Counted from the stretch's first letter, positions 4,278-23,603 are shown. The stretch is 32,000 nt of DNA from Candidatus Harpocratesius repetitus (GCA_021498095.1 JAIZWK010000001.1:2310001-2342000), one strand, 5' to 3'. The notes: generated by a model from the sequence alone, not told the origin. Program-made: numbers and translations.

Positions 4278-4297
4278 GTGAAATTCGTGTGAAATTC
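4278..4297. promoter_or_regulatory. GTGAAATTC direct repeat (11-bp period) in the hdrB/hdrC divergent intergenic region
   Basis: Copies at 4278-4286 and 4289-4297. The repeat is seen directly; a regulatory role is inferred from position only. Confidence 0.25.
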
Positions 4298-4602
4298 TAA
4301 AATGCTGAATGTAGCTTTTTTTTAGGAAGATTTTGATCACTTTTCGAAAGAGAATTTAACAATTCAAGTAAAAATAAATGAATTATTCAGATAATCGTAC
4401 TTTTCTTGGAGTTAGCGAATGAACCTCAAATTAAGTTATGTTTTTCACCAAATCCAATAAATGAAGCTTTTTAAACATTCATTTTAACACTACACCATCA
4501 AATACCCATTTTAATTTCATGTTGCCTATTTGCATGGATTTAAAATAAAAACACCATTTTCATGATTTCTTGTGGTATGAATAAGGTGTTTTTCTCACTC
4601 TC

Positions 4603-5496
4603 ATGAGGGAAATAAATATGGAAAAAATCCAACGGAACATTATTGTTCACATTTCGGATATTATCAGCGAAGAAATAATAAAAGACGAGGCAATGGCTTT
4701 TGTCAGGGCATGTTTTCAATGTGGGACTTGCTCTGGAGGCTGTCCATCTGGACGTAGAACTGCAATTCGTACTCGTCAAATTATTCGTCGGGTAATTTTA
4801 GGATTGGAAGAAGTGCTTTCTTCTGATGATATCTGGCTCTGCAGTACGTGTTATACATGTTTTGAAAGATGTCCAAGAAGTATACCTGTTACTGACATAA
4901 TTATCAAATTGCGAAATTTAGCCACTCAACGAGGATATATGAAACCCCCACATAAAGCAGTTACTCATATTTTAGCTGATACAGGCCATGGTGTTCCGTT
5001 GGGAACGCAAAAAGGTGGTGAACCGAATAATTGGAGTCAATTACGGGCATCATATGGCTTACCGGACATTCCTCCAACAACACACAGTCACCCAGAAGCT
5101 GTTAAAGATATTCAGATATTGATGCACGCTACGAATTTTGATAAATTGGTTGATTGGAAACCAAAAAATACCGAACTGAAGCCAAAGGTTAATGAGAAAA
5201 GTGAAGAAAAAAGTGAGGGAAAAAATGAGGGAGAAAGTAAGGTAAAAAGAAAAGCAAAATCAAAATCAAAATCCCAATCAAAAGTCAAAGAAGAACTTAA
5301 ACCTAAAAAAGAAGTAGAAATCAAAAAAGAACTTGAGATCAAAACAGATTCCCAAACCAAAACCGAATCCAATATCAAATCTGAATCTGAAACAAAGAAA
5401 ACAAGCACAAATAAAAAAACTGTGACAAAAAAGAAAAAGGGTTTAAAGAAAAAATTAAAAAAAACCCGAATTTCCAATAAAAACAAAAAAAAGTAA
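4603..5496 (+). CDS. hdrC: Heterodisulfide reductase subunit C with a 112-aa Lys-rich C-terminal extension
   Basis: CFQCGTCSGGCP and WLCSTCYTCFERCPR motifs, followed by DIIIKLRNLA and TGHGVP typical of HdrC. The start may be ATG at 4618 after GAGG. Confidence 0.92.
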   Translation: MREINMEKIQRNIIVHISDIISEEIIKDEAMAFVRACFQCGTCSGGCPSGRRTAIRTRQIIRRVILGLEEVLSSDDIWLCSTCYTCFERCPRSIPVTDIIIKLRNLATQRGYMKPPHKAVTHILADTGHGVPLGTQKGGEPNNWSQLRASYGLPDIPPTTHSHPEAVKDIQILMHATNFDKLVDWKPKNTELKPKVNEKSEEKSEGKNEGESKVKRKAKSKSKSQSKVKEELKPKKEVEIKKELEIKTDSQTKTESNIKSESETKKTSTNKKTVTKKKKGLKKKLKKTRISNKNKKK

Positions 5497-5686
5497 AAAG
5501 TAAAAAATAGCTTAAACTTCGAAATTCTAAAGAATATTGTCCAATACTGCTAAATCATAAGAATTCGTGTTTGAATTAAGAAAAAAACTTCAATGTCGAA
5601 TGGATCATTATCCTTCGCTTAAAAAAATAGATCACAATAATAATTTCAATAATATAAATAATTATAAAAAATGAGTAGAGTAAACT

Positions 5687-7702
5687 ATGAGTAAATCTAA
5701 AATAAATATAATTTCCCCTTCTAATAATTCAGAAAGCACCGAAATTCGCATTGGTGTTTATCTCTGCCATTGTGGGGTTAATATAGGCGGTGTTATCAAC
5801 ATGGATGAAATGGTTAAATTTGCTCAGAAACTTCCAAATGTTGTAATAGCACGCCAGTATAAATTCTACTGTTCTGATAACGGACAAGCTGAAATTGCTC
5901 GCGATATTCGTGATGGATTAGTTAATCGCGTTGTGGTTGCTGCTTGTAGTCCCCGCATGCATGAAAGTACTTTTCGGCGCGTTTTAGTTGATGAGGGTTT
6001 AAACCCATTTTATTTTGTCCAAGCAAATATTCGAGAACATGCCACTTGGGTAAATATGAATGATCCTGCTGGTGCCCAACGAATTGCCCAAGATCATGTT
6101 CGTATGCAAGTGGCAAAAGCAAGAGAGCTCCGCGCCTTGAAACCACAAAAAGTCATGGTAAAGCCATCTGCTTTAATTATCGGCGCAGGTATTGCTGGAA
6201 TTAATACTGCGTTAGATTTGGCAAATCAAGGTTTTCATGTATATTTAGTTGAAAAAGAACCGACTATTGGGGGTCATATGGCACAATTGGATAAAACTTT
6301 TCCCACAATGGACTGTTCTTCATGTATTCTTACTCCAAAAATGGTCGAAATTTCACGTAATCCTAACATAACAGTTATGGCTTATTCAGAAATAGAACAT
6401 GTAGATGGATATGTTGGAAATTTTCAAGTGCAAATTCGAAAGAAGGCTCATTATGTGGATCAACTGAAATGCACAGGCTGTGGGGAATGTGCCCAACATT
6501 GCCCTGTTTCTGTTGGAAATGAATTTGATTTGGGACTCAGTCATAGAAAAGCCATTTATATTCCATTTCCTCAAGCTGTTCCCGGATTGTATACTATTGA
6601 TATGGAGCATTGCATAAAATGTGGCATTTGTGCATCTACCACCGTTTGTGAACCTCAAGCCATAAATTTTGATGATCAAGATGAAATTGATACAATTGAA
6701 GTCGGAACCATTATTGTGGCTACCGGATATGATCCAATCGATGTATCTAATCTTGGAAATTATGGATATGGTCGATTTGAAAATGTGATTACAGGGCTTG
6801 AAATGGAAAGGAATCTTAGCAGTACAGGTCCTAATCTGGGTCATCCTGTGCGTCCTTCAGATGGAACTTCCCCCAAGTCGATTGTATGGATTCAATGTGT
6901 TGGAAGTCGGGATACTAGAGAAGGTTATCATCCATACTGTAGCCGAGTTTGTTGCATGTATGCGATTAAACAAGCCCGGCAGTATAAGGAAAAACATCCT
7001 GAAGCTCAATGTTATATATTCTATATAGATATTCGCGCATTCGGTAAGGGCTATGAAGAATTTTATGAATTAGCCAGTCATGAATATGGTATCAAATTTA
7101 TGCGGGGTCGTTTAGCAGAAATTCAAGAAAATCCTGATAAATCGCTGTTAATTCGCGCTGAAGATACATTTCTTGCTCAACCAATTGAAATTAATGTAGA
7201 CATGGTTGTTCTTTCAATAGGTTTGGAAACTACTCATGATTCTGGTAAAATCGCTTCTATGCTGGCAATTCAAAAATCCACTGATGGTTTCTTCATGGAA
7301 GCTCATCCCAAACTTCGTCCAGTTGATTCTCTTACGGATGGAATATTTATTGCTGGAGTTGCTCAAGGACCAAAAGATATTCCAGATGCTGTTTCTCAAG
7401 CAAAAGGTGCTGCTGCGGGTGCTGCTATCTTAATGGCAAAAGGGGAGGTGGAAGTGGAGCCATATTTTTCAATTGTACAACCTGCTCTCTGTTCTGGTTG
7501 TAGATCTTGTATTAATCAATGTCCATTTGGAGCAATTACATTTGATGAAATCTTGCAAATTGCTCATATAAATCCAATTAAATGCAAAGGATGCGGAACT
7601 TGCGCATCTACTTGTCCATCGAATGCAATTCTTCAAAATCATTTTACAACAAAACAATTAATGGCTATTATTGATGGTGTTTTAGGAGATTATCAAGTAT
7701 GA
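5687..7702 (+). CDS. hdrA: Heterodisulfide reductase subunit A (flavin-based electron-bifurcating subunit), Cys form
   Basis: RIGVYLCHCG N-terminus, GAGIAG FAD motif, LDKTFPTMDCSSC, inserted ferredoxin (CTGCGECAQHCP, CIKCGIC), QCVGSRD...CSRVCCMY, and a C-terminal ferredoxin (CSGCRSCINQCP, CKGCGTCASTCP). Confidence 0.97.
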   Translation: MSKSKINIISPSNNSESTEIRIGVYLCHCGVNIGGVINMDEMVKFAQKLPNVVIARQYKFYCSDNGQAEIARDIRDGLVNRVVVAACSPRMHESTFRRVLVDEGLNPFYFVQANIREHATWVNMNDPAGAQRIAQDHVRMQVAKARELRALKPQKVMVKPSALIIGAGIAGINTALDLANQGFHVYLVEKEPTIGGHMAQLDKTFPTMDCSSCILTPKMVEISRNPNITVMAYSEIEHVDGYVGNFQVQIRKKAHYVDQLKCTGCGECAQHCPVSVGNEFDLGLSHRKAIYIPFPQAVPGLYTIDMEHCIKCGICASTTVCEPQAINFDDQDEIDTIEVGTIIVATGYDPIDVSNLGNYGYGRFENVITGLEMERNLSSTGPNLGHPVRPSDGTSPKSIVWIQCVGSRDTREGYHPYCSRVCCMYAIKQARQYKEKHPEAQCYIFYIDIRAFGKGYEEFYELASHEYGIKFMRGRLAEIQENPDKSLLIRAEDTFLAQPIEINVDMVVLSIGLETTHDSGKIASMLAIQKSTDGFFMEAHPKLRPVDSLTDGIFIAGVAQGPKDIPDAVSQAKGAAAGAAILMAKGEVEVEPYFSIVQPALCSGCRSCINQCPFGAITFDEILQIAHINPIKCKGCGTCASTCPSNAILQNHFTTKQLMAIIDGVLGDYQV

Positions 7703-8166
7703 TAAAATCAAAAATTGAAGACAATCCTTCTTCCGAAGTGATTGATAAAGATTTTGAACCATTCATATTGGGAATATTCTGTAATTGGTGTACCTATACT
7801 GGATGCGATCAAGCAGGTACTTCGAGAATGCAACGCCCTGCAAATTTGCGCGTTATGCGTGTTATGTGTAGTGGCCGTGTTGAACCAGAAATGGTTATTG
7901 AAGCTTTAAAACGTGGGGCAGATGGTGTTCTTATTGGTGCTTGTCATATCGGGGACTGTCACTATGTAAATGGAAACCACAAGACAGTTCGGCGTATGCC
8001 GGTTTTAGTAAACCTTATTGAACAATATGGTTTTAATCCTAATCGTGTGTGGTTAAGACATATATCAGCATCAGAAGGTGCGGAATTAACTGAAATTGTT
8101 AAAGAATATGTGAAAATACTAAAAGAATTAGGCCCCAATCCGTTGAAAAATCAAAAATCAAGATAA
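7699..8166 (+). CDS. mvhD: MvhD/FlpD [2Fe-2S] subunit (hydrogenase delta), Cys form
   Basis: FCNWCTY...RVMCSGRV...GADGVLIGACHIGDCHYVNGN. ATGA overlap with the hdrA stop indicates translational coupling. Confidence 0.95.
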   Translation: MIKSKIEDNPSSEVIDKDFEPFILGIFCNWCTYTGCDQAGTSRMQRPANLRVMRVMCSGRVEPEMVIEALKRGADGVLIGACHIGDCHYVNGNHKTVRRMPVLVNLIEQYGFNPNRVWLRHISASEGAELTEIVKEYVKILKELGPNPLKNQKSR

Positions 8167-8428
8167 TATTTTTTTAATTTCTTTAATTTGGTGAAAGCAC
8201 TTTTTTACTATGGTAAAATCTATCTTATCTTGAATAATTGTCAATTTTTCTCGATGTTTTAGAAGAACCTATCAAAATATTTGCAGATTTTATATTTTTC
8301 ATTATTCTTACCTAAAATAGTTTGTATGATCTTTATAAGGTGCACAAATAAAAATTCTAATAGTAAAGCGTATTTTACTACCTATATCATGTGATGAGTG
8401 ATATCTTTTCTCCACTCACAAACCGGAT

Positions 8429-9514
8429 TTGAGGTGTCGAAAAATAACCGCAGAATCAAAATCGAATAATTTATCTTCGAAATTTTTTCATACTCGGGAA
8501 TTTTTTCCCATTGAAGTAAATTTTGGCGATAAAGAAATTATCAAAATAACCAAGCGCCCGCGCAAGACTACTACTGAAATTGTTGATATTTATGCAAACG
8601 GCTATCATATTGGCATGTTTGTAGGAATTGAACGGGTGGGAAATGAATTAAAATTCGGACCAACAGGATTAAATAAATCTCATATATATCGAAATATTCT
8701 CGATTATGTATTTGTTCGTTTACTAGAATATTTTGGATTGACTGGTGTGGCTCAAATTAGTATTGATGTTCCCGAAGATACTGAATTCAAGTCTTTTCTG
8801 CTGCAATTAGGATTTATTCCTAAAGATAATCAACTTATACTGGAATTGACTGAAGAAAATTTAAAAAAATTGATGAATTCTCTCGAAAAACATCCTTTTG
8901 AAATAAAATCTCAAGTTGGGCAATTCCAAAATGTAATTTCTTTTAATCTTGATGATCCTGATGAAAAAACTGTATTAAAAATGGTTGATCATATTGTAGA
9001 GAAAATTAAAAACATGGATCCTATCGGGAAAGAATTCTGGGATAACAGAAAAGTTATGCAGTTAAATTATTATTTAACTATGGCAGTATTAAATAGAAAT
9101 CAAATCATTCCCGATGAATTTCTGGAAACAAGCTTGAAAACTATTATTGCATCACTTGATACGTTTAACCGAGAAGCCTATTTGGAAGAAATATTTGTCG
9201 CTTTAGATGGTGGTAAAGCATTTGGTATGGATTATATTCAGAATATTCTTACTAAATTGCAAGAATTAGTTCCTGAAGAAATAAAAGTATTGAATAAGGA
9301 TCATCTACGTGATTGGGTCCAAAAAAACATGCCTGCTTGGATTTTAAGTGATGAAATTGAAAATAAAGCACGTGAAGAATTAAAAGCTAAATCTCGCTTG
9401 AAGTTGGAAGATTTCGGCACATCGATAAAAGATAGCATGAAAGATGTTATAACTGCCCTAATCGATCATTATAATGGAGAAAGAATCTTCTTTGGAATGA
9501 ATAATCGATTATAA
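8429..9514 (+). CDS. Hypothetical protein; N-terminal half resembles a degenerate GNAT fold, C-terminal half helical
   Basis: 361-aa ORF. HIYRNILDYVFVRLLEYFGLTGVAQISIDVPEDTEFKSFLLQLGF follows the GNAT motif A-helix/beta5/'FY.KLGF' pattern but lacks the R/QxxGxG/A loop. Confidence 0.6.
   Translation: MRCRKITAESKSNNLSSKFFHTREFFPIEVNFGDKEIIKITKRPRKTTTEIVDIYANGYHIGMFVGIERVGNELKFGPTGLNKSHIYRNILDYVFVRLLEYFGLTGVAQISIDVPEDTEFKSFLLQLGFIPKDNQLILELTEENLKKLMNSLEKHPFEIKSQVGQFQNVISFNLDDPDEKTVLKMVDHIVEKIKNMDPIGKEFWDNRKVMQLNYYLTMAVLNRNQIIPDEFLETSLKTIIASLDTFNREAYLEEIFVALDGGKAFGMDYIQNILTKLQELVPEEIKVLNKDHLRDWVQKNMPAWILSDEIENKAREELKAKSRLKLEDFGTSIKDSMKDVITALIDHYNGERIFFGMNNRL
8431..8436 (+). promoter_or_regulatory. 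Shine-Dalgarno GAGGTG
   Basis: Matches the archaeal anti-SD. It lies 7 nt upstream of an in-frame ATA at 8444 and overlaps the TTG chosen by the ORF track. Confidence 0.5.
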
Positions 9515-9554
9515 AAAAAAAAGGAAATCTATAATAAATAAAAAAGAGTAAAAT

Positions 9555-11453
9555 TTGGTGAAAATTATGGTAGAAGGATATACTCAAACTTGTGTACGCA
9601 TCAATTTAACCACGGGTGAAATTAAAAAAGAAACCTTAAGCCAAGATTTTTGCAAGCAGTACATTGGTGGCTATGGTTTTGTTACAAAAATATTATGGGA
9701 TGAATGTCCGAAAGGTGCAGATGCATTTGACCCCCGAAATCCATTTGTAATGGCAATTGGACCGTTTCCAGGAACAATTGTACCCACTTCATCCAAATAC
9801 TGTGTAGGTGCAAAATCTCCTTTAACAAGACGAATTGGATTTGCGATCAGTTCTGGATCATGTGGTGCGCAAATGCGAAGGGCAGGAATTGATTTGATTA
9901 TTCTTACTGGCAAAGCTCCTGAACCTGTCTTCATTTTCTTCGATGATGATGCTATTAACATCATACCGTGTAAGGATACCCTTTGGGGAAAAGATATCTG
10001 GACCGTTGAAGAAGAAATTCGCAATATGTATGGTGATCATCGTATTTCTGTTATGGGTATTGGTCAAGCAGGAGAAAATTTAGCAAAACTAGCTTGCATT
10101 ACTAATGATAGAGCTCGACAAGCAGGACGAACAGGATTGGGTGCAGTAATGGGCTCAAAAAATGTTAAAGCAATGGCTTTTCGAGGAACTAAATCCATTA
10201 AAGTGGCAAAACCGAAAGAATTTATGGAAAAAGCAAAAGAATTAATTCAATTAGCAAATGGAAAAGATACTTTAAAATACCGTGATTTAGGCACACCAAT
10301 AAATGTAATGAAATTTAACGATCTCGGTGTTTTACCAGTAAAAAACTTCCAAACAGGTTATTGGGATAAAGCTGATGCAATTTCTGGAGAAACTATGGAT
10401 GAAAAATGGGTTGTAAAAAAGACTGGATGCAGTCAATGCCCAATTGCTTGTGATCATTTATGTGCTACCAAACCAGATGATCCAGATTATCCAAACGTCG
10501 TTTCAAGTGTAGATTATGAAAGTATTTATGCCCTCGGTTCTGTTTGTTTAATCGATCATTTTCCAGCTATAATTAAAATGGTTGAAATGTGCGATAAGTA
10601 CGGAATTGATACCATGACCGGTGGTACCACTTTGGGATTTGCTATTGAAGCTTATGAAAAGGGATATATAACCAAAGAAATGCTCGGAGATAATCCTGTT
10701 TATAAAAATGGTCTTCAATGGGGAGATTATAAGGCAGTTGTTCAACTTATTGAAGATATATGCTTTCGATCAACTCCAGCTGGAGATCTTTTAGCTGATG
10801 GTTCACGTGATGCAGCTAAAAAGTTGGGAGGAGACGCTTGGAAATTCTCGTGTGAAATTAAAGGAATGGGTATTCCGGGCTATGAATTAAAAGGATTAAC
10901 TACTGCATCTATTGGGTTTGCTGTCTCACTGAGAGGTGCATGCCATCTTCGAAACGGGTCATATGGTTATGATATGAAAAAGAAATTCGATCGGAAAAAA
11001 TACGATGAACTTGACAAACGGGGTCAAGCTTTAGCTGGACAAGATGCCTTTATGGCGATTATTGATTCATTAGTTGTGTGTAAATTTACGCGAGGAATAT
11101 ATCACCGTGGTTTACCAGAAATTGCAGAAGTATATGAAATGGTAACTGGTATTCCCATGACTGGTGAAGAAATCGAACTTGCAGGCCATAGAATTCATGA
11201 TTTGGCAAAATGTTTCAATATTCGAGAATGTCAAGTAGAAGGAGTTGAACCTATGAGTGAAGATTCACTTCCATGGCGAAATTTCCATGAACCTAATCTC
11301 GATGGACCTACAAAAGGATGGTACAATGATGAAAAAGGATTCTGGGAAGGAATCAAGCAATATTATCTTGCCCGTGGATGGGATGAACGTGGTTATCCGA
11401 AAGAAGAAACCCTCAAAACTCGAGGCTTAGATTTTGTAATAGGAAAAATTTAG
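9555..11453 (+). CDS. aor: Tungsten-type aldehyde:ferredoxin oxidoreductase (AOR/WOR family)
   Basis: GAKSPLT, GRTGLGAVMGSKNVKA, GCSQCPIAC, DKYGIDT, KGMGIPGYE, RGACHLR, DSLVVCKF, YYLARGWDERGYPKEETL. The start is probably ATG at 9567 after GGTGA. Confidence 0.95.
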   Translation: MVKIMVEGYTQTCVRINLTTGEIKKETLSQDFCKQYIGGYGFVTKILWDECPKGADAFDPRNPFVMAIGPFPGTIVPTSSKYCVGAKSPLTRRIGFAISSGSCGAQMRRAGIDLIILTGKAPEPVFIFFDDDAINIIPCKDTLWGKDIWTVEEEIRNMYGDHRISVMGIGQAGENLAKLACITNDRARQAGRTGLGAVMGSKNVKAMAFRGTKSIKVAKPKEFMEKAKELIQLANGKDTLKYRDLGTPINVMKFNDLGVLPVKNFQTGYWDKADAISGETMDEKWVVKKTGCSQCPIACDHLCATKPDDPDYPNVVSSVDYESIYALGSVCLIDHFPAIIKMVEMCDKYGIDTMTGGTTLGFAIEAYEKGYITKEMLGDNPVYKNGLQWGDYKAVVQLIEDICFRSTPAGDLLADGSRDAAKKLGGDAWKFSCEIKGMGIPGYELKGLTTASIGFAVSLRGACHLRNGSYGYDMKKKFDRKKYDELDKRGQALAGQDAFMAIIDSLVVCKFTRGIYHRGLPEIAEVYEMVTGIPMTGEEIELAGHRIHDLAKCFNIRECQVEGVEPMSEDSLPWRNFHEPNLDGPTKGWYNDEKGFWEGIKQYYLARGWDERGYPKEETLKTRGLDFVIGKI

Positions 11454-12038
11454 GTGATGATTATGTCAATGAAAGCAAATAATACGCCCAAAACAGAAAA
11501 AAATTCAAGCATTGATACTTCTGCAATTATGCATAAAATTCTTGTTGTGGATCCTGCCCGTTGTACAGGATGCGAAATTTGTGAGTCCGTATGTGGAATG
11601 GTTCACGACGATGTTTTTAATCCAATGAATTCTCGCATCCATCGAGTCCGCATTGAACCTGTAATCAATTCCAGCATAAGCTGCGTTTCATGTTATGATC
11701 CTGATTGTGTAAAAGCTTGTCCTCTTAGTGCTATCACAAAAAATCTTGAAACAGGAATTTTAGAAGTAGATCAGAATAAATGCGATGGTTGCGGAGCTTG
11801 CATGAGAGCATGCTCTTTTGGAGCGATCACTGTGCATACGAAAAACAAAAAGGCGATCATGTGCGATATGTGTTCAAGCACGATTTATGGGGAACCTCAA
11901 TGTGTGGAATATTGTCCTAAAGGTGCGATTTTTATTGAGGAAATTGATCCGAATGTTAATGAAGATCGTTTAGAGACTTTACGAAAGATTCTTGAACGCG
12001 GTTTTCCGCAACCACCTGAAGGGGAAATTTTAAATTAA
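11454..12038 (+). CDS. 4x[4Fe-4S] electron-transfer protein (DmsB/CooF/AorA-like), probable AOR small subunit
   Basis: CTGCEICESVC, CVSCYDPDCVKACP, CDGCGACMRACSFG, CDMC...PQCVEYCP. It directly abuts the aor stop. Confidence 0.9.
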   Translation: MMIMSMKANNTPKTEKNSSIDTSAIMHKILVVDPARCTGCEICESVCGMVHDDVFNPMNSRIHRVRIEPVINSSISCVSCYDPDCVKACPLSAITKNLETGILEVDQNKCDGCGACMRACSFGAITVHTKNKKAIMCDMCSSTIYGEPQCVEYCPKGAIFIEEIDPNVNEDRLETLRKILERGFPQPPEGEILN

Positions 12039-12070: not shown

Positions 12071-12902
12071 AACTTTTATCTCCTACATCTAAAATGGATT
12101 TAGCACATAAATTAAGCCCGGTTTCCCACAAACGTAGCAGATAGAACTTGGCAGACCATTTTGTACGGCTCATTTTCTCCAGTTTTTTTCGAATATGTCG
12201 ACGTCGAGAATTCCACGGAACAATATTGTGAATGCGACTCCGTTCTTGTACTAAAAGATCCAGCTGTTTATGTCGCTGCCATTGATTATACAATTCTAAT
12301 CATGCGATCCAATAAAATTGTCGTCGTGTAGATTTTTGGGAACGACTCTTATGTAAAAACTGGTATTTCGTATCTCGAAAACCATTTTCAATCCTCCATC
12401 GTTCATGATAGTCCTTTGCAAACTTGATAAATTTACCGTTCAACTTCGTAGGATCTTCTCCTGGTGCAATCGAGATGGTAAAGAAGGTGACAGCATGAAT
12501 TAATTTATTCTTTTTCTTTTTCAAACGAATTTTGTGATCATAGTGTGAATAACAGAGGCGATAAAGTCGTTCTTCCTCAGTATTGCTGAATTTTTTCCGT
12601 CGTTTGGCTTTCCTGTATTTGAGTTGGCGTGGATTTTTTTTAGTCGCTTGTTGGAATTTGAAATACTTATCTTCAGCGAGTTTTAACTGCTCCCGAATAG
12701 AAAGCAATCTATTTTGGATTGAAAAAGCTTCATTTTTTATAGATTCAAATGATCTGGATTTTCCTTTTTTATATTCATCTACTAAAACAACCTGGGCCAC
12801 GGGAATTTTATAATATCCATCTCCATATGGAACATTATATTTACGGCATAAATCTCGAAGCTTCGGCGGAGAACTAATAAATTTTTCGTTCGATTTTAAA
12901 TT
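12069..12902 (-). pseudogene. IS4-superfamily transposase remnant (5'-truncated, internal TGA)
   Basis: The track ORFs 12300-12800 and 12069-12293 are one frame separated by TGA at 12302-12300 (YWIA*LELYNQW). The frame stays open upstream to 12902 with no start or N-terminal domain. It has a perfect YREK signature, Y-HE-R-WRI-E-NGFRDT-K (12410-12366). Confidence 0.8.
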
Positions 12903-12977: not shown

Positions 12978-14531
12978 GGATCAATTAAGAGAATCCCTAT
13001 TTTTTAAATTATTCCTAAATCATCTTTCAAAGAATTATTTTTGGCAATCTCTTTGAAATTTAGGACCAAAACGTATATATTCTTAAGCATCTATTTCAAG
13101 TCAGTTCGTAAACCGATGTTTTGGAAATGTTTAAATCGTGTCGATCATGTGTTATCCTATGGTAGGACGCCCTAAAAAGGAATATCCTCCATTATTCGAG
13201 CCATTATGCATTAATTTCGAAGATGGAAGGGAAGAAATTCTAGAAATAATACCTGTTTTGTGCCCAGAATGTCGCTCTGCTGTCGTCGGAGTATATGGCA
13301 CTCATAAACGGAAAGTAAGAAGGGTTCAATATTATAAGTGTAAAAATCCTGCATGTTCATTCGATAAAACTCACAATACTGCCCGACAATTTGCCTTGAC
13401 TACATCTGGAGGTGTCAGAGAAGTGCTTGACGGCATGCTCGGCAAGATGACAAAAGAAATCATGAAAGGAAAAATCAGCCAGAGTGCTATAGCCGAAAAA
13501 TATGGAGTTTCTGATGCTCTTATCTGCTATTTACGTTCTAAGATAGAGAAGACAATTTCAAATCTGCAGGGATTAAAAAATCTGGTTGTGGAATTAACGA
13601 ATGATACTGCGGTTGCAGAAGATGAAACTTTCATTCGAATTAACAGTGTACCGTTTTATATTATCATGTTCACGGGCTATACCAGTAATAAAATTCTCGG
13701 AATAAAGGTTTTAAAAACGAGGAACGAAAAAGACATCCGTGAAGTTTTTGACAGAGCGAATCGAAATACAAAATTGCCGATAAATGTAATTACTGCCGAT
13801 GCATGGGGTGCTACACAAACAATGAGCAAGAATTTAATGCGTAAAATTACCTTAGTAATTCATAAGCATAAAAAACCCTATGATAAGGCTGGTATTTGGC
13901 ATATTGATTATGAAAAAACGAAGCGGATAATCACTAAAATAGGTCTTAAAACCAATTTTTTTAAAAAACGGGGCAAAAGAGAGTATTTTTACTTAGTGAT
14001 GAAGAAAATTTAAGTCTACCAGTACCAAAAAAGCGGGAAAGACCAAAAGGAGTGAAGAACAAGCAAGGAAAACAAAGAAAAAATCCAAAACCAAAAATGA
14101 AGCGAGGACGGAAAGGCCTCTTTACAGTTTTTGACAGAGGAAAACGGGGATATGCGAAAATTGAACCTTCTCGTAAAACTCTAAAATTGGCAAGAAGTGT
14201 GCTTCCTGCAGTTGCAGCTGCTTTTAGGGAAACACAAGACTTATTTTGGAAAAAGTCTATATCAAATAATCTGGCGGAGAATATAAATAGTGTGATTGAG
14301 ACTCGTGTTCATTTAACTGGTCCTAAAACACCTGAGGGTTTAGAACAGCGACTTCGGGCATTTATTATCGCCAAAAATAACCCAGAAATCTTAGAAATAA
14401 CATTTGTTTCGCACAAATTTAATACAAAAATTCTTTTTAATGAATGGAATAATTCAGGAATTAAACGGTTATTTCAATTGAATGAAAATTTGGGGAAAAA
14501 AAATCAAACCCAGGTGTCAGTGAATTGATCC
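12978..14531. mobile_element. Insertion sequence, 1554 bp, DDE type, family unassigned (IS1/IS6/ISL3-like features)
   Basis: Imperfect terminal inverted repeats GGATCAATTAAGAGAATCC (12978-12996) and GGATCAATTCACTGACACC (reverse complement of 14513-14531) match at 14/19, with the first 9 perfect. The transposase stop lies inside the right TIR. No target-site duplication is visible. Confidence 0.75.
13138..14528 (+). pseudogene. DDE transposase split by a -1 frameshift between 13965 and 14010
   Basis: ORF1 has a Zn ribbon (CPEC...YKCKNPAC), an HTH (SQSAIAEKYGVS), DETF and TADAW. ORF2 has SNNLAENINS (catalytic E). The ORF2 frame is open from 13965, overlapping the end of ORF1, so one frameshift gives a ~460-aa protein. 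Confidence 0.8.
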
Positions 14532-16587: not shown

Positions 16588-17145
16588 TTGTTAATGGGCG
16601 AGAAAACTGGTTTTATTACAAGAATCAAACATTTTATTATTACCCGAAAATCAAAAGACTCAACCCAAAAAGAAAGCAATAATGTACCAAATGTAGGAAA
16701 AAATTCAGAAAATCATTTAAATAAGGCAGAAATTCAAAAAAAACTTAATGGAACCACCCTAATGGTTTACTTTGTCTTATTAAATAAGCATAATACAGGT
16801 GTACGTGAATTACAGAGAAATTTAGAATTGTCCAGCCCGAGTGTAGCACGTTATCATTTGGATAAGCTGGTGGAATTAAATTTAGTGAGTAATAATAATG
16901 GAGTATATCAACTTCAACATAAAGCAGATATTCCAGTTTTATCCACTTGGGTTCTTTTAGGTAGGTGGTTACTCCCTCGATCGATATTCATGGCTATTTT
17001 TACTACTTGTTTTTTCATCGGCTATCTTGGGTTTATTTTTTTTACATGGAATAGAGATAGTGCGATAGTAATCATCTTTGGAATTGTAATTCTTATTTAT
17101 TTGTGGTATGATGTTTTTTATCATCTAAATCATCGACCAATCTAA
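16588..17145 (+). CDS. Membrane-anchored winged-helix (ArsR-like) transcriptional regulator
   Basis: GTTLMVYFVLL...GVRELQRNLELSSPSVARYHLDKLVELNLV...GVYQL wHTH followed by two hydrophobic helices (SIFMAIFTTCFFIGYLGFIFF; AIVIIFGIVILIYLWYDVFY). The start is probably ATG at 16594. Confidence 0.85.
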   Translation: MLMGEKTGFITRIKHFIITRKSKDSTQKESNNVPNVGKNSENHLNKAEIQKKLNGTTLMVYFVLLNKHNTGVRELQRNLELSSPSVARYHLDKLVELNLVSNNNGVYQLQHKADIPVLSTWVLLGRWLLPRSIFMAIFTTCFFIGYLGFIFFTWNRDSAIVIIFGIVILIYLWYDVFYHLNHRPI

Positions 17146-17360
17146 CATTTGGATTCATTTTTTAAAGTATTTTATAAAAATATATTATAATCATCGTGTT
17201 TTAAATTGTAACATGCTAATTTCCTATTTTTTGACAAATTAACCGATTTTCCTTTACTGTTCTATGATTTTGATTTGTGCATGAAATGTGTTCTAAACCT
17301 TAGGATAAAATTGTAATGACTCATATTTTTAATAACGATTAATTTTGGTGTTAAATAAAA

Positions 17361-20300
17361 ATGAATCAAGATCGTAAAAAAATTGCAATAATATTGGTTG
17401 GTTTGGTCTGTTTCCAAATTCTTGCCGTAGGTGCATTCGACGTGGGTGCATTTAATTCTCCCAATTCAATTAATTCTTCAGATTTTTCTGAATCCACTTC
17501 TTTAATAAAAAATTCATATCCATCACATTCTACTCCATATCGTTTTTCTGTAAATCCAAAGACACCATTGTTTACTGAAATGGCTGATGAAGAGCAACAG
17601 GGAAAAATTAATGATAAATCCTATTCAGACGATGGAACTACTTCTGCTACTGATTCAGAAACCGAGACAAATCAAATTCCGCATTCTCAATATTGGTGGG
17701 ATAGCGATTATGCTATGGCAGTGAATTTAGAGAAATATGCCTTCACTTCGGAAGAAGATATTAATATAGAAATCCAAATGACTTATAATTTTACTCCAGT
17801 TGTTAATCACGTAATTGATGTTTATGTTTATAAGAACTATTGGCGTAATTGGTACTATTACTATTCGTATTATTATGATGATACTAGTGAATCTGATCAG
17901 ATTTATCATCAAACTGTCTATACAGATTCTACAGGTCGAGCAGTACTTTCAATTACTGATGAGTTAGCTGAAGGTATGTATACATTGTATATTACTGATT
18001 ATAATGTTGATTCGTATAAAGAATTCACCGTTGGAAATGAAGGTATTTTTGTAAAAGCCCCACGATATTATAAACCCGGGCAGGATTTTCGAGCTGGTAT
18101 TCATTTAGTCGATTTATCGAATTTTTCTCCCTTACCTAAGCAGAATTTTTCCTATTCTCTTTCATATTATAATTGGGAATATGATAATAGCGGTTGGGTT
18201 CAAGTTTTAGCTGGAAATGGAAGTGTTGATGAAAATGGTTACAATCTTTTAGAGTTTACAGTTCCTTCAGAAATGGAAAATAAATATTACATGCGCTTAA
18301 ATATAGAAATTCCTGGATCTACAGTTCATTTTTCTATGTTCCTTTACCAGTCATGGGAGTATTATTATTTCAGTTTATGGGGAGGTGAACAATCTATGAA
18401 TGGAGATCATTTTCAATATGTTGTGACAACTGATAAAACTATTTATAGCTTGGGAGAAACCATGCATTTACGAGCAATGGTCTTAGAATATTCATTTATG
18501 AATGAGACGCGCACACCCTTAGCTGGAACTCCTATTCGGGTAGCAGTGAATAATCCTGATGAATTTACTGTATATTGGACAGAAATTCTAACTGATTCGT
18601 CTGGAATTTTGACCTTTGATTTTCATTTTAGCGACGATACAGATATTGGAACATATTCAATTCTTTTTGATTATCAGAATCATAGTTATTCTTATCCGAT
18701 TAAAGTTCAATATTATGAAAAACCTGTTTTTCGCGTATCAATTGACACATATGGAAAAAATTTCTTTCCAGAATCAACAGATGTATTATATTTTAAACCT
18801 ACATTGTTTGAAGGAGATGTTGTTGTTGAATACTATTTTGGGCAACCAGTTATCGGTGCTGAAGTAGAACTCAGAATTGTGAATTATAATGGAGAAATTG
18901 TTTATTCTGAGACAGGGAATACAAATGCTTTAGGGAAATATCATTTTGCAATCTATTTAAACAATATTGCGGATTTATCTTATAGTTTTGATGCTCATGC
19001 TATAGTTTCTGACGATTATGGAAGATCTTCGGCGAGTAAACAGAGTTATACACGTATAAAAGACACTTATATTTGGGGTTATGTTAATCCATGGGATCCT
19101 AATCCAGGAGATGAACTAACATATTATTTCTATGCATACCAGTACTTAATGCGTCCAGGAGGATCTTCTTATTGGGATTGGGAGTTTAACCCATTAGCTA
19201 ATGTCTCAGTATCGGTTAAACTTTATGGGATTAACGCCATTTGGATCGATGAAAATTCATTAAAGGCAAAAAAATATATAACCACATATAAAGGAATCAC
19301 TAATGAGTTTGGTTCTGGTTCTATTCAATTTTCTGTAGATTCTTCTTTAATTGGGAAATATGATTTTTTTCAAATAGAAATAAGTATGGTTTTAGAAGAT
19401 GGAAGATCTTCTTCTTCTTGTGATTATTTCCGCTTTAAAAAATATAGTTTAAGTCTTAATTTAGATAAAAAAACATATCTTCCCGGTGACACTATTAAAA
19501 TTTCTACCAAATTCTGGGATAATATCGCTAATCAACCTGTACAAGGGAAAGGTGAATTATATCTCTACGATTCAAATTATCAGCGAATCGGTAAAGCAAC
19601 AATGATCTTTAATGGTGAAGAAAATCTATACTTCAATTTATCCCAATATGCAAAATCTGGAACTTATCGTATTTACTCATACGTACTTTCAGAAGGTAAC
19701 TCTTATTATAGAGGTTTTTCTTATCAATCTGCTTATATTCAATTTACTGTAGGGCAAACTTATGAAATTCGTTTAGACACTAATGTTACAACAAAAGATG
19801 AAAAAGGATATAGATTTTTAGTTCATTCAGGGGATTATATTAAAATTTTTGGTTCTTCAGATGTACCTACAAATAACTTACACTATATAGAGGTGTATAA
19901 ACGAGGATTAATCTTTTCTGCTCCACTCAATATAACAAATGGAACATTTTCCTATGAATTTGTTGTTGATTCTTCATGGCTGCCTGATTTTACAATATTT
20001 GTTTACACCATCTCTGAAACGGGACATATTATTGAAAATTACCTTGTATTTCATGTAAATATCACTGTAGGAATCTCATTAAAGACAGATAAAGAAGTGT
20101 ATGAGCCTGGAGATTTTATTACATTGACTATTTCGCCAACATCTGATGATCCTACCTTAATTTCTCTTTCATTCATCGATAGCGCAGTTTTAGATGTTGA
20201 ACCAGAAGATGATTCAGAACTTGCATATTTTTCCAATTATAATTATGCTGCGTATCTTCAATCTTCCAGTTCTTGGGGAGTAGGATATGATGGTTCAAAT

Positions 20301-23300
20301 TATTGGTGGATAGGATATGGATCTCCCACTGGAAGATTGTATTGGCTTATGCCTAGATATGATGATGCCTATATTGCTTATGATGAAGCATCAGGTTTTG
20401 ATGAAGTTAACCTATTATCTGATGTTCAGAGAGGAGATGATGGAAATCCAACTTTTAGCTTCGAAGATATTTTAGGATCCTTTGATATTGATATTAGAAA
20501 AAATATTTCTGAATCATCAAATTGGAATCCAAAATTGTGGATTACTGAACCCACTAACTTTACTTTTAAGCTACCAGATAATATTGGAGAATGGACTATT
20601 CGTGTCGTAGCCGCAGGTATTGATCAAGAAGGTGGTAGTAATGTTTTATGGGGAGATGTTCAAACTATTAGAATAAAATCATTTTTACCATTCTTTGTCG
20701 AGTTTGATATAGCCCAACCAGTAACACAAGACGATATAATAACCATTAAAGCGTATGTCTACAATTATTTAGGAACAGATACTACAGCTTTAGTGGCTAT
20801 TAATGCTCAAGGATTGAATATTCTGAATAATGAAGTCCAGCAAGTGTTTATTCCATCGAATATGGTCTCTGAAGTAGAATTTTCTGCATATTGTAGAGAT
20901 GCATTTAATCAAAATATTACCATTTTAGCTGCTACTAATAGTTCGATAGGTGATTATGCCGATGCAAAACAGATTCAAATATATGTCAAACCTAATGGCT
21001 TAGAACTTAAATTTCAGCAGATTGGTGTGGTGAATGCAAGCGATCCATTTATTTTAAATTATTCAATTGATGAAAATACAATTTATCACAAAGAAACTAT
21101 TGCGATTTATAGTGATCTTCTCGATGTTTCTTTAGATAGTTGGTCATCATTAATTGGGTATCCTTATGGATGTGTGGAGCAGACAGTCTCTAAATTACTT
21201 CCTAGTGTTTTAATATATCAGTATTTACAAATGACTGGTGAATTAACTGAAACATTGGAAATTCAAATTCAAAATATTGTGGCAGATGGATTAAATCGGC
21301 TATATACAATGCAACATTCTGATGGAGGTTGGGGTTGGTGGCAAGATGATGAGTCACGAATCTATATGACATCAATTGTGCTTTTTACCATGATTGAAAT
21401 TGATAAAGCAGGATTCTATATCAATTCCTTCAATTTTAATGAGGCACTGGCTTATCTTTTAAATCAACAGAACAGCGATGGTTCTTGGACACTCGCTAGT
21501 TATTATGGTAATACTGCATTTGAAGCTACTGCATATATTTCTAAATTGCTTCTTTCGCAGAAAATATCTACTATTGATCTCTCTGAAGCAGTATCTCAAG
21601 CTATTTCATTTTTAGATGACCAATGGGATAATGAAGAGTATCGAGGATCATATGGTGCAGCCATGTATTATTTAGCTACCCATGATACAGTATTTGAAAA
21701 TTCTGATCGATCCAACGCTTTGATAAACTTCCTACTCGAGAATAAGCACAATCAGAATGGGAATGTCTTTTGGTCTTTTGATTCAGATAATTATTGGTAC
21801 TGGGGATATTTTGGAGGGACTGTTGAAATTACTGCCAATGTAATTATGGCATTAGCTGCTGATGGATATATATCACATTTTCCTCTTCTTCAAAAAGCAA
21901 CTCAGTTTTTACTTTCACAGAAACATCAATATGGGTGGTGGACTACAGCAGATACTTCTTCAGCTATTCAGGCTTTAATTTTTATGAAAAATATAACTGT
22001 AGGTCAAGAAATTCTCGAATTTAACGGTAGTATAAATGTAAATGTGAATAATCAAGAAACTCCGCTTTATGAGTTAAACTATACTAGTGATTGGATTCCG
22101 TCTCAAATTAAACTACGAGTAGATTCACGCATGGAAACAGGAAATAACACTCTCACTTTAGATTCTTCAGGAACTGGACAATTTGTTTATATGTTTGAAT
22201 CTTTCCAAATTGTCAGAGTCATGCCAACTATCGAAATTCAAAATGATATTACTGCGTTATCTGGACAATCATTTAATTTCTCAGTAATTTTCCGAGATAT
22301 TCCTTCTTGGTACTCTTTACAACAAGTTTCAATAGAATTGGTTGATTTAAATCAAAATTTTGATATTGTTTCTCCAGTCAATACAAATTCACTTTTTACT
22401 GAGGCAATTACAACTGGAACAAGTCAATTTAATTTCGTCCTTATGGCACCTGGAAAAATAGGTAATTATGATTTAACCAAAGTCCGAATTTCTGGTGATT
22501 TTGTTTACTTGAATCCAATCGATAACAGCACTACTTATCAGCATATCTATAAACAAATAGGACCAATCATTTGTAATGTGGTTTCCCCTTCTGCCGCTGA
22601 TTCAGGTGATTTAAGTTTCTTAAGTGGATTTCAATCTCCTCCGATATATTTTTATCCAAATACAGCTAATGATGATACTTCGTCCAAGCAAGTTTCAAAA
22701 GATGGAATAATTTTGAAGAAATCATTCGATACTCATCAAAGGTTATTTGGTGGAGATGTAATTACTGTGACAATATCAATCCAAAATACAGGAGAAAATC
22801 GCCAGTATTATGCGCTAGATGATTTTCTACCTGAAGGAACCGAATATATTCCAGGATCTATGCAAATTCTTTCAATAGATGGATCTAATTATCCTGTTGA
22901 CATTAAAGGATCTCGTATTCATGTATACTTTGCATCTCTTCCTGTTGGAAATACAAGTATTTCTTATAAAATCCAAGTAATTAATTTGAAAAATTCATTT
23001 GGTGGAAAATGCGAACTTTGGGGAATGTACGATAAATTTTCGCTGCAAACACATGGAGAAGAATTAGAAAATATTCCTTTAGAATATTCTCCAAACGATC
23101 AAATTTATCGAGATACAGATAATCCAAACATAGTTGAAGCCAATCTTGAAGATATTACCACTTCCACACCAAAAGTTTTGATTAATTTAAAGGTATCAGA
23201 TGCAAACTTAATTTATAAAATACGCGTTTATTTTCTGCAAGAAAATCAATGGCATCAAATTCTCTTCTATAATAAGGAAACAACAGAACAAATTGACTTA

Positions 23301-23603
23301 ACTATTGATATCTTAGACAATGTTGATTCAGATGTGGTTTTTATGTTAGAAATATTTGATATATATGGAAATATTGCCCAAAAATGGTTTGATCCTTTAA
23401 AGATCTTTTCGACACTTCCTCCATATACTACAATTGGAATTATTGTTGGTGTATCGCTTGGAATAGCGGGATTGGCTGCGCTTTCTACGAAAAAACCTGA
23501 ATGGTTTCAAAAACTACTTCCTAAGAAATATCGAACTGAAGATAAACCTCATTCTTTAGAGAGAAAAGCAAAATTTTCTTTTATAGATGATACTGAAGTA
23601 TAA
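17361..23603 (+). CDS. Alpha-2-macroglobulin / thioester-containing protein (TEP) family, type I membrane-anchored
   Basis: Signal peptide (MNQDRKKIAIILVGLVCFQILAVGA). MG-domain motifs: TTDKTIYSLGET, YYEKPVFRVSI, KTDKEVYEPGD...IDSAVL, LPDNIGEWTIRVVA, PFFVEFD...VYNY. Thioester PYGCVEQT (Cys1271, 21171-21173). TED motifs QHSDGGWGWW and QNSDGSW, plus WWTTADTSSAIQAL. MG8/DUF11-like DDFLPEGTEY. C-terminal TM IGIIVGVSLGIAGLAALST followed by a ~37-aa tail. Confidence 0.95.
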   Translation: MNQDRKKIAIILVGLVCFQILAVGAFDVGAFNSPNSINSSDFSESTSLIKNSYPSHSTPYRFSVNPKTPLFTEMADEEQQGKINDKSYSDDGTTSATDSETETNQIPHSQYWWDSDYAMAVNLEKYAFTSEEDINIEIQMTYNFTPVVNHVIDVYVYKNYWRNWYYYYSYYYDDTSESDQIYHQTVYTDSTGRAVLSITDELAEGMYTLYITDYNVDSYKEFTVGNEGIFVKAPRYYKPGQDFRAGIHLVDLSNFSPLPKQNFSYSLSYYNWEYDNSGWVQVLAGNGSVDENGYNLLEFTVPSEMENKYYMRLNIEIPGSTVHFSMFLYQSWEYYYFSLWGGEQSMNGDHFQYVVTTDKTIYSLGETMHLRAMVLEYSFMNETRTPLAGTPIRVAVNNPDEFTVYWTEILTDSSGILTFDFHFSDDTDIGTYSILFDYQNHSYSYPIKVQYYEKPVFRVSIDTYGKNFFPESTDVLYFKPTLFEGDVVVEYYFGQPVIGAEVELRIVNYNGEIVYSETGNTNALGKYHFAIYLNNIADLSYSFDAHAIVSDDYGRSSASKQSYTRIKDTYIWGYVNPWDPNPGDELTYYFYAYQYLMRPGGSSYWDWEFNPLANVSVSVKLYGINAIWIDENSLKAKKYITTYKGITNEFGSGSIQFSVDSSLIGKYDFFQIEISMVLEDGRSSSSCDYFRFKKYSLSLNLDKKTYLPGDTIKISTKFWDNIANQPVQGKGELYLYDSNYQRIGKATMIFNGEENLYFNLSQYAKSGTYRIYSYVLSEGNSYYRGFSYQSAYIQFTVGQTYEIRLDTNVTTKDEKGYRFLVHSGDYIKIFGSSDVPTNNLHYIEVYKRGLIFSAPLNITNGTFSYEFVVDSSWLPDFTIFVYTISETGHIIENYLVFHVNITVGISLKTDKEVYEPGDFITLTISPTSDDPTLISLSFIDSAVLDVEPEDDSELAYFSNYNYAAYLQSSSSWGVGYDGSNYWWIGYGSPTGRLYWLMPRYDDAYIAYDEASGFDEVNLLSDVQRGDDGNPTFSFEDILGSFDIDIRKNISESSNWNPKLWITEPTNFTFKLPDNIGEWTIRVVAAGIDQEGGSNVLWGDVQTIRIKSFLPFFVEFDIAQPVTQDDIITIKAYVYNYLGTDTTALVAINAQGLNILNNEVQQVFIPSNMVSEVEFSAYCRDAFNQNITILAATNSSIGDYADAKQIQIYVKPNGLELKFQQIGVVNASDPFILNYSIDENTIYHKETIAIYSDLLDVSLDSWSSLIGYPYGCVEQTVSKLLPSVLIYQYLQMTGELTETLEIQIQNIVADGLNRLYTMQHSDGGWGWWQDDESRIYMTSIVLFTMIEIDKAGFYINSFNFNEALAYLLNQQNSDGSWTLASYYGNTAFEATAYISKLLLSQKISTIDLSEAVSQAISFLDDQWDNEEYRGSYGAAMYYLATHDTVFENSDRSNALINFLLENKHNQNGNVFWSFDSDNYWYWGYFGGTVEITANVIMALAADGYISHFPLLQKATQFLLSQKHQYGWWTTADTSSAIQALIFMKNITVGQEILEFNGSINVNVNNQETPLYELNYTSDWIPSQIKLRVDSRMETGNNTLTLDSSGTGQFVYMFESFQIVRVMPTIEIQNDITALSGQSFNFSVIFRDIPSWYSLQQVSIELVDLNQNFDIVSPVNTNSLFTEAITTGTSQFNFVLMAPGKIGNYDLTKVRISGDFVYLNPIDNSTTYQHIYKQIGPIICNVVSPSAADSGDLSFLSGFQSPPIYFYPNTANDDTSSKQVSKDGIILKKSFDTHQRLFGGDVITVTISIQNTGENRQYYALDDFLPEGTEYIPGSMQILSIDGSNYPVDIKGSRIHVYFASLPVGNTSISYKIQVINLKNSFGGKCELWGMYDKFSLQTHGEELENIPLEYSPNDQIYRDTDNPNIVEANLEDITTSTPKVLINLKVSDANLIYKIRVYFLQENQWHQILFYNKETTEQIDLTIDILDNVDSDVVFMLEIFDIYGNIAQKWFDPLKIFSTLPPYTTIGIIVGVSLGIAGLAALSTKKPEWFQKLLPKKYRTEDKPHSLERKAKFSFIDDTEV

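Follow-up and report, generated by a model that had tools for sequence, protein, structure and literature searches.

What use does an archaeon have for an alpha-2-macroglobulin (A2M), and does the possession of one bear on the origin of the thioester proteins (TEPs) of eukaryotes? These questions are raised by a gene in a stretch of 32,000 nucleotides from Candidatus Harpocratesius repetitus (GCA_021498095.1 JAIZWK010000001.1:2310001-2342000), hereafter the window. A first-pass annotation of this DNA had proposed that positions 17361-23603 encode an archaeal A2M/complement-like protein with an intact thioester motif, which would be displayed on the cell surface as a covalent trap and would be relevant to the origin of eukaryotic TEPs if the host were an Asgard archaeon. 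The analysis described here places the protein firmly in the A2M family and in an old Asgard clade. It favours a tethered, bait-triggered covalent protease trap at the cell surface, a reading to which we give a probability of roughly 0.6, and by an indirect test it argues against a special tie between the Asgard family and the animal proteins.

Positions 17361-23603 on the plus strand are a single open frame of 2080 residues, just as the annotation had it. Four Pfam domains of the A2M family are found in the protein in canonical order, each above its curated cut-off: MG2 (residues 354-449, E 5e-21), A2M_BRD (798-945, E 4e-11), A2M, which corresponds to MG7 (1064-1145, E 1e-7), and TED_complement (1252-1539, E 3e-26). 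This order, the predicted fold and the conservation of the thioester bear out the claim that the protein is a full member of the A2M/TEP family. The ordered MG, bait, CUB, TED and MG8 layout that had been proposed holds by Pfam and by the order of the modelled domains, with one qualification: no CUB was detected as a separate Pfam domain in the 2080-residue protein, and a CUB-like domain is supported by the global structural match of the model to native TEP1, C3 and A2ML1 (Z 33-34). The Pfam search of the same protein detected no A2M_recep domain, and a DUF11-type repeat match at 1798-1836 fell below the cut-off. The protein contains 6 cysteines. Its layout is as follows, where pLDDT is the predicted local distance difference test score of the AlphaFold2 models.

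17361..17450 (+): signal-peptide-like N-terminus (residues 1-30) without a lipobox, from hydropathy
17451..17705 (+): low-complexity, poorly conserved linker (31-115), conservation 0.17-0.30 with many gaps
17706..20318 (+): about seven MG-type beta-sandwich domains, including the body of the bait-region domain (116-986), from Pfam MG2 and A2M_BRD, AlphaFold2 and Foldseek
20319..20495 (+): bait region (987-1045), disordered (pLDDT <50) and hypervariable in the family alignment
20496..21116 (+): MG7 and the beta domain before the TED, taken as the first part of a CUB-like domain (1046-1252), from Pfam, AlphaFold2 and structural match
21117..21995 (+): thioester domain (TED), an alpha/alpha toroid (1253-1545), from Pfam (E 3e-26), model helices and structural match
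21168..21182 (+): thioester motif GCVEQ (1270-1274, with Cys1271 and Gln1274), from the sequence
21996..22586 (+): beta domains after the TED (1546-1742), the putative second part of the CUB-like domain and an extra beta-sandwich at ~1652-1741, AlphaFold2 pLDDT ~80-92
22587..22691 (+): Ser/Asp-rich disordered linker (1743-1777), pLDDT 39-54
22692..23075 (+): MG8, the equivalent of the receptor-binding domain (1778-1905), from structural alignments to TEP1, C3, C5 and A2ML1
23076..23420 (+): membrane-proximal beta-sandwich or stalk domain (1906-2020), AlphaFold2 pLDDT ~90
23421..23489 (+): C-terminal transmembrane (TM) helix (2021-2043), from hydropathy
23490..23603 (+): predicted cytoplasmic tail (2044-2080) ending FSFIDDTEV, and the stop codon; KK directly follows the helix

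Modelling by AlphaFold, which the annotation had suggested as a check, returned a TEP-type fold for both halves of the protein, folded separately with an alignment of ~100 family members. The N-terminal half (pLDDT 82.6) consists of ~7 beta-sandwiches followed by a disordered end at 987-1045, and its Foldseek matches are ECAM, at the top, and the beta chains of C3, C4 and C5, with E from 1e-21 to 2e-27. The C-terminal half (pLDDT 85.2, predicted template modelling score 0.77) runs from MG7 through a beta domain, the helical toroid at 1253-1545, further beta domains and the linker at 1743-1777 to MG8 and a last sandwich. Two features that had been noticed in the sequence thereby acquire a predicted structure. 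The extra segment of ~150 residues before MG8 corresponds to a folded beta-sandwich at ~1652-1741 together with the disordered linker 1743-1777, and the proposed immunoglobulin-like stalk is a beta-sandwich at 1923-2015, between the strings DTDNP and DIYGN. Within the stalk domain, Asp1918, Pro1922, Asp1947, Trp1964, Asp2000 and Asn2004 are invariant across 100 sequences, and its acidic residues might bind a metal ion.

Superposition of the C-terminal half with native TEP1, C3, A2ML1, A2M and C5 (VIA-align) gives Z of 32-34 over 600-675 aligned residues, with a root-mean-square deviation (rmsd) of 5-7 Å; the individual Z values are 33.9 for TEP1, 33.7 for C3, 33.5 for A2ML1 and 32.7 for native A2M, and CD109 reaches 28.9. 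Activated A2M, CD109, A2ML1 and C4b superpose only at an rmsd of 12-23 Å, and in Foldseek native C3 has a query-normalised TM-score of 0.49 and C3b one of 0.25. Because native TEPs fit far better than activated forms, the model represents the native state; in this state the thioester of solved TEPs is buried. The toroid by itself matches C3d, C4dg and the TED of C5 with Z of 25-28 and an rmsd of ~3 Å. The alignments to TEP1, C3, C5 and A2ML1 extend to model residue ~865-880, in MG8; within model region 8-880, ~220 residues stay unaligned to TEP1, C3 and A2ML1, and the stalk domain lies outside the coverage of most TEP-family structures.

The thioester motif is intact, as claimed, with Cys1271 and Gln1274 in GCVEQ at residues 1270-1274. 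Full-length members of the family, otherwise only 24-66% identical, share an unchanged core Y-P-x-G-C-x-E-Q-T in 101/101 cases, and the intervening Tyr is kept in 100/101. Which type of thioester chemistry would such a protein carry out? The complement branch is marked by a catalytic His ~115 residues after the thioester Cys; in the loop that aligns (HMMER) to Asn1065 of human A2M there is no conserved His, and the window protein has Asn1384. No RxK/RR processing site is present in the 2080 residues, and the ANATO and C345C/NTR domains gave no Pfam match at E <= 0.1. On these three counts the label "complement-like" does not hold. Since the conserved His and the processing site are both absent, A2M-like chemistry, that is, direct reaction with amines, is expected and not the C3-like type.

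The bait region is hypervariable in both sequence and length. Of all internal 40-residue blocks in the family alignment, its core at 1001-1040 shows the lowest conservation (identity 0.19, gaps 43%). The stretch 990-1045, enclosed by two conserved flanks (SYWW-GYG and EIRxNxxESxNW), ranges from 23 to 57 residues across members. Against a strain whose protein is 92.5% identical, 27% of positions differ in the bait, 19% in linker 31-115, 34% in linker 1743-1777 and 4-7% in the domains. Fast evolution of the bait was considered as a sign of positive selection and rejected, because the other disordered linkers evolve equally fast (19-34%). The beta domains after the TED (1546-1742) are also less conserved across the family.

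How the protein would be held at the cell is suggested by its two hydrophobic segments. The N-terminus has a basic n-region followed by a hydrophobic stretch at 7-27 (Kyte-Doolittle 2.7), so the signal-peptide-like character that had been claimed stands, as does the absence of a lipobox at this end, the residues preceding Cys17 being G-L-V. The sole other strongly hydrophobic segment, at 2021-2043 (Kyte-Doolittle 2.07), is followed by KK and a tail of 37 residues, in agreement with the C-terminal helix and cytoplasmic tail of the annotation. This C-terminal helix is found in every full-length family member, and the N-terminal hydrophobic segment in nearly all. Hydropathy and the positive-inside charge rule fit a type I single-pass topology throughout the family. 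Taken together, they are best explained by a type I membrane protein with an ectodomain of ~1990 residues outside the single Lokiarchaeial membrane and a C-terminal helix as anchor. No archaeosortase/exosortase (PF09721) was found in this genome.

The tails differ between the Loki-type and Heimdall-type branches of the family, described below. Of the Loki-type tails, 38/46 carry a motif [ST]-F-[LIVF]-[DENS] with acidic residues after it; of the Heimdall-type tails, 1/55 does. Loki-type tails vary in length and sequence, the motif being kept while its distance to the membrane changes, and the Pro-Tyr that precedes the TM helix is invariant in 42 Loki-type sequences. Heimdall-type tails consist mostly of a few basic residues, and a distinct acidic motif, F-[KQ]-E-T-E-E-D-L, characterises one Heimdall subgroup. 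As for the many N-glycosylation sequons pointed out in the annotation, 26 N-x-S/T sites are indeed present; shuffled sequences give 22 +/- 4, and an enrichment was therefore rejected.

What, then, might the protein do? We favour a tethered protease trap, at the probability given above, and propose that it would operate as follows. A foreign or stray endopeptidase would cleave the exposed, disordered bait (987-1045), upon which the body of MG, CUB, TED and MG8 domains would rearrange and leave the native, thioester-buried state. The exposed Cys1271-Gln1274 thioester would then react directly with amines, such as the lysines of the protease, with no catalytic His involved, as in A2M. In the end the protease would be covalently bound to the cell surface and sterically hindered there. 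The Lokiarchaeial envelope consists of one membrane, from which surface proteins protrude, and has no ordered surface layer (S-layer) (PMC9834061; PMC11284389); the trap would serve to protect such an envelope.

Several points weigh against a protease trap. Other linkers change as fast as the bait, whose rate by itself would not signal diversifying selection. Inhibition may be inefficient if the trap is a monomer tethered at a great distance from the membrane. A simple trap would have no need of the conserved cytoplasmic motif or of the extra domains, and the N-terminal segment could stay uncleaved and serve as a second anchor. Finally, the gene is absent from most of the Asgard genomes searched, so the envelope can do without the protein.

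A covalent adhesin or tag is the alternative that survives best, although we consider it distinctly less probable than a protease trap. In such a case the thioester, freed by proteolysis or contact, would fasten the archaeon to a partner cell, a matrix or a virus particle, and the protein would resemble opsonins and TED adhesins, not an inhibitor. An invariant thioester on a long, stalked and membrane-anchored ectodomain would suit this purpose well. Cultured Lokiarchaeia live in syntrophic contact, with surface densities that link their protrusions (PMC9834061). The best structural Z, 33.9, is that to the opsonin TEP1, but it is tied with those to C3 and A2ML1. Three features speak against an adhesin: the conserved catalytic His that C3, C4B and TEP1 use for hydroxyl-directed tagging of surfaces is missing, a disordered bait of the A2M type stands where a defined activation site would be expected, and the family profile is nearest in sequence to A2M, CD109 and A2ML1, not to C3 or C4.

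The second alternative concerns the gene immediately upstream of the A2M gene and the spacer between the two, in which three features can be distinguished.

16594..17145 (+): winged-helix (ArsR/Lrs14-like) domain and two TM helices, ~184 residues, from translation and weak Pfam matches
17258..17264 (+): half-site TGTTCTA, a second copy of the element core, from the sequence; similar copies lie 21-22 nt upstream in other genera
17287..17312 (+): putative promoter/operator element GTGTTCTAAAC-CTTAG-GATAAAAT, including a TATA-like box, from comparison of spacers

The first ATG of the winged-helix gene is at 16594, and the start given by the open reading frame (ORF) finder is a TTG at 16588. The matches of its residues 51-105 to winged helix-turn-helix (wHTH) families are weak and concordant (ArsR, Lrs14 and TrmB types; HTH_5 E 0.003, Lrs14 E 8e-4). 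The two TM helices are joined by an outer loop of five residues. Orthologues are 53-62% identical. An orthologue scoring >260 bits is present in 15 genomes of the order, always directly preceding the A2M gene on the same contig and strand; in G225, the 16th genome, the orthologue is cut at the contig start, and in the two genomes with an A2M gene and no winged-helix gene the A2M gene is cut at a contig end. The winged-helix gene thus stands directly upstream in every complete Loki-type locus, and ~30 other genomes have weaker paralogues only. No such neighbour was seen beside Heimdall-type A2M genes in the loci inspected, nor beside Thermoplasmatota-type A2M genes in three loci inspected.

The core of the 24-nt promoter element starts 71 nt before the A2M start codon. 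At 8 loci in 4 genera this element recurs 69-74 nt before the start codon of the orthologue, and a fifth genus has a variant of it; the consensus is GTGTTCTAAAC-(T/C)(G/T)TAG-(T)ATAA(A/T)A, and the remaining spacer cannot be aligned. The 4.36-Mb genome contains a single exact copy of the 13-base core. A genome-wide search for further operator sites returned 3 matches with one mismatch against 12 for the reversed control, and no regulon is evident from it. In other genera a TGTTCTA-like half-site usually lies 21-31 nt upstream of the element, while TGTTCTA by itself, with 7 copies in the window against 4.8 expected, is no more frequent than chance would allow. The regulator, the promoter element and the tail motif mark the same, Loki-type subfamily. 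The adjacent membrane-tethered winged-helix protein probably controls A2M expression through the element.

Paralogues with a wHTH domain and two TM helices (45-75 bits) are common in Lokiarchaeial genomes without an A2M gene, partly in tandem or within open frames of >900 residues (for example G023:C29:22126-25524 and G271:C31:27651-30957), and may form a family of membrane-tethered regulators with other targets. In one Heimdall-type genus (L015-L019, L024-L026) the A2M gene follows a conserved gene of ~860-876 residues on the same strand, and in five of these loci a conserved gene of ~250 residues lies downstream; with a single genus represented, the order may be plain synteny.

This pairing raises the possibility, which we hold to be rather doubtful, that the A2M protein acts as a sensor-receptor, cleavage of the bait or discharge of the thioester being signalled, by way of the TM helix and the conserved acidic tail motif, to the winged-helix protein or another cytoplasmic partner. 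Promoter element, tail motif and wHTH gene are peculiar to the Loki type and travel as a set, and the tail motif keeps its sequence while the distance to the membrane varies. Moreover, the regulator is almost devoid of an extracellular loop, so its input must come through the membrane or the cytoplasm. Plain transcriptional control, however, fully explains both the adjacency and the promoter site. Contact between the A2M and winged-helix proteins is conjecture, and Heimdall-type members without regulator and motif have nevertheless kept the rest of the protein. If such a circuit did exist, a protein of the A2M family would be serving as a kind of receptor in an archaeon closely related to eukaryotes.

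To what extent is the gene an Asgard gene? The closest database protein, 95% identical, is named from Candidatus Harpocratesius, and the host genome, a single contig of 4.36 Mb, encodes a eukaryote-type actin (Pfam E 1.5e-130). The host is thus a Lokiarchaeial Asgard archaeon, and the archaeal origin that the annotation had assumed, with its conditional mention of Asgard, is confirmed. An exhaustive search returned 7655 representative clusters at E <= 1e-3, in which Asgard members score at least 232 bits and all others at most 210 bits. After the closest protein come ~115 clusters of 1920-2130 residues from Promethearchaeota, Loki-, Hermod-, Thor-, Heimdall- and Hodarchaeota, with Promethearchaeum syntrophicum and Lokiarchaeum ossiferum among the relatives; at NCBI these proteins carry the name "MG2 domain-containing protein". 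A literature search for the Asgard A2M family or a functional study of it found no paper, in line with what the annotation had said of functional work, and the accessions QEE16955 (P. syntrophicum), WP_147663878, UYP43896 and NEF87_000181 (L. ossiferum) are absent from the searchable literature.

In trees of 229 sequences (FastTree) and 92 sequences (IQ-TREE), the Asgard sequences form one side of a branch with support of 100 and a stem of ~0.4. The clade of ~2000-residue proteins is monophyletic, and its members share a length of ~1920-2130 residues, the thioester core and the C-terminal TM helix. Its nearest neighbours are a Thermoplasmatota clade, a bacterial clade of 17 and a clade of 7, none of which is singled out. 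Nesting within a bacterial clade, which the annotation had named as the mark of a recent transfer, is not observed, and the trees argue against such a transfer. The Asgard clade splits deeply into the Loki-type and Heimdall-type branches, and the family is therefore old within Asgard.

The distribution is patchy. Of 400 genomes of the phylum, 45 match at E <= 1e-20, ~37 of them carrying the ~2000-residue type, and 11/90 high-quality Asgard genomes match at the same threshold. Matches are concentrated in the window's own family (7/13) and in another family (18/22). In a second Lokiarchaeial family one genus has 9/54 and its sister genus 0/42, and in a genome-labelled tree this genus nests inside the diversity of the first family (Shimodaira-Hasegawa-like approximate likelihood ratio test, SH-aLRT, 86-88), which suggests transfer of the A2M gene within Lokiarchaeia. 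The family is old in Asgard, yet dispensable and mobile.

Two further groups were noticed near this family. A shorter A2M-like type, which has open frames of ~1540-1670 residues and scores 143-286 bits with the Asgard profile, was seen in several Asgard genomes (G016, G018, G020, G087, G158, G168, and as a second copy in G246 and G050), which either lack the ~2000-residue type or carry both. The clade of 7 (including P0118, P0151, P0168 and P0177) has GCVEQ intact; several of its members have no hydrophobic N-terminus and are possibly cytoplasmic, and its cluster members come from marine-sediment metagenomes labelled both "archaeon" and "bacterium".

With an Asgard host established, is the family the direct ancestor or the sister of the eukaryotic thioester proteins? 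The host itself, a single-sequence search of the PDB that puts animal A2M and CD109 far above E. coli YfhM, and a fold in agreement with native animal TEPs would all invite this conclusion. The question was addressed by an indirect test, in which clade profiles covering equal regions were compared with PDB sequences. Human A2M, CD109 and TEP1 score 304, 283 and 235 bits with the profile of the bacterial clade of 17 (Acidobacteriota/Myxococcota), and 216, 187 and 179 bits with that of a second bacterial clade. The corresponding values are 193, 171 and 153 bits for Asgard, 191, 157 and 176 bits for the clade of 7, and 151, 145 and 138 bits for Thermoplasmatota. The 304-bit clade is bacterial by its names (Myxococcota, Pyrinomonadaceae, Blastocatellia, Terriglobia) and gene context, and it carries A2M_recep, a domain common to the animal proteins that was not detected in the window protein. 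A profile search with this eukaryote-like clade returned only Acidobacteriota fragments, the named cluster members that were looked up are archaeal or bacterial, and a scan of genome contigs found no eukaryotic TEP sequences and returned three bacterial loci.

Since every prokaryotic clade tested ranks animal A2M, CD109 and TEP1 first, the high rank of the animal proteins in the first PDB search is a trait of the whole prokaryotic radiation; it would seem to reflect no special tie between Asgard and eukaryotes, with E. coli YfhM as a divergent outlier. The patchy Asgard distribution also speaks against ancestry or sisterhood. To our knowledge, TEPs among eukaryotes are essentially confined to animals, which counts in the same direction. 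Ancestry or sisterhood is accordingly very improbable, and the relevance to the origin of eukaryotic TEPs that the annotation had suggested is not sustained by this indirect test.

Least probable of all is that the gene came recently from bacteria by horizontal transfer, or that its product is a passive structural component of the coat with an unused thioester. The transposase-like ORF remnants 3-5 kb upstream and the patchy distribution could be cited in favour, but such readings are at odds with the monophyly of the Asgard clade (support 100, long stem), a GC content of 0.30-0.34 that matches the window, the deep split into Loki-type and Heimdall-type branches and a thioester motif invariant in 101/101 members.

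The remaining genes of the window were surveyed as well. At 1344-12038 lies a cluster encoding an HdrB-TPR fusion, a polyferredoxin, HdrC-like, HdrA-like and MvhD proteins, an aldehyde:ferredoxin oxidoreductase (AOR) and a 4Fe-4S protein. A 361-residue ORF at 8429-9514 (+), between mvhD and the AOR gene, has a weak RasGAP match (E 0.003, below the cut-off). The ORF at 12300-12800 (-) has a weak transposase-type match (DDE_Tnp_1, E 0.0025), and that at 13138-14013 (+) matches an Ogr/Delta zinc finger and DDE_Tnp_IS240 (E 0.002-0.003); both are possible mobile-element remnants 3-5 kb upstream of the gene pair.

A recent review presents the hypothesis that bacterial A2Ms were taken from animal hosts, and does not mention archaea (PMC13069473, 2026). 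The deep, monophyletic and thioester-conserving Asgard clade among 7655 clusters of prokaryotic relatives suggests that the thioester trap is an old prokaryotic invention, which archaea would display in their own way, by a C-terminal helix. Cryo-tomography of Lokiarchaeia, which have no S-layer, shows large unordered densities at the surface, for which the Asgard A2M is a candidate, and the locus offers a compact unit of regulator, operator and target that is testable in organisms now culturable. The origin of animal complement is not made more tractable by it, the closest prokaryotic relatives of animal TEPs being bacterial by the indirect test.

Among known systems, A2ML1 (7q1y), CD109 (8s3o) and human A2M (6tav, 7von) come closest. 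They share the order of MG array, bait, MG7, CUB/TED and MG8, a disordered bait and a GCxEQ motif without catalytic His, and human A2M, CD109 and A2ML1 are the best PDB sequence matches of the Asgard profile (193, 171 and 167 bits). CD109 is likewise tethered C-terminally, but by glycosylphosphatidylinositol, whereas the Asgard protein has a TM helix and a 37-residue tail and, by this predicted anchor, would not be secreted either. Compared with these animal types the window protein is ~600 residues longer and possesses a further MG domain at the N-terminus, an additional domain and linker preceding MG8, and the stalk; it has no furin-type site, few cysteines (6), no A2M_recep match and an archaeal host. 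Complement C3, C4 and C5 and insect TEP1 share the fold and native arrangement (Z 33.9 to TEP1, 33.7 to C3), but the Asgard protein lacks the anaphylatoxin and C345C domains, the processing site and the conserved His, and C3 and C4 reach only 106-116 bits.

The bacterial counterparts, E. coli ECAM/YfhM and Salmonella A2M (5a42, 4ziq, 4u48), are monomeric, membrane-tethered thioester traps thought to guard the envelope. In sequence ECAM/YfhM is only weakly similar: the match of 48-50 bits is confined to ~120 residues within the TED. ECAM has an N-terminal lipid anchor and pbpC (PBP1c) as its partner; the window protein has a C-terminal TM helix, no lipobox, and the winged-helix gene and an acetyl-CoA synthetase gene, not pbpC, as neighbours.

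Outside Asgard, A2M homologues that have CxEQ were already described for Halobacteria and Methanomicrobia among the archaea (Makarova et al. 2021, PMC8416519). They possess a signal peptide, Ig/MG domains and a TED with intact CxEQ, some together with a transcription regulator, and differ from the Asgard protein in domain layout; Asgard archaea are unmentioned in that paper, and the tail motif, regulator pairing and promoter element of the Asgard clade, not described there, are new. In the same wider branch, the Thermoplasmatota homologues (P0120, P0132, P0139-P0150; 1529-2579 residues) have a signal peptide, a C-terminal TM helix and GCxEQ, and form a separate clade (support 100) with only 28-31% identity to the Asgard protein. 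The annotation had set C-terminal anchoring apart from bacterial lipid anchoring; the TM anchor stands, but it is not unusual among archaea. Because the Thermoplasmatota clade, including its proteins of 2400-2580 residues, shares it, anchoring by a C-terminal helix would be a general archaeal mode of display.

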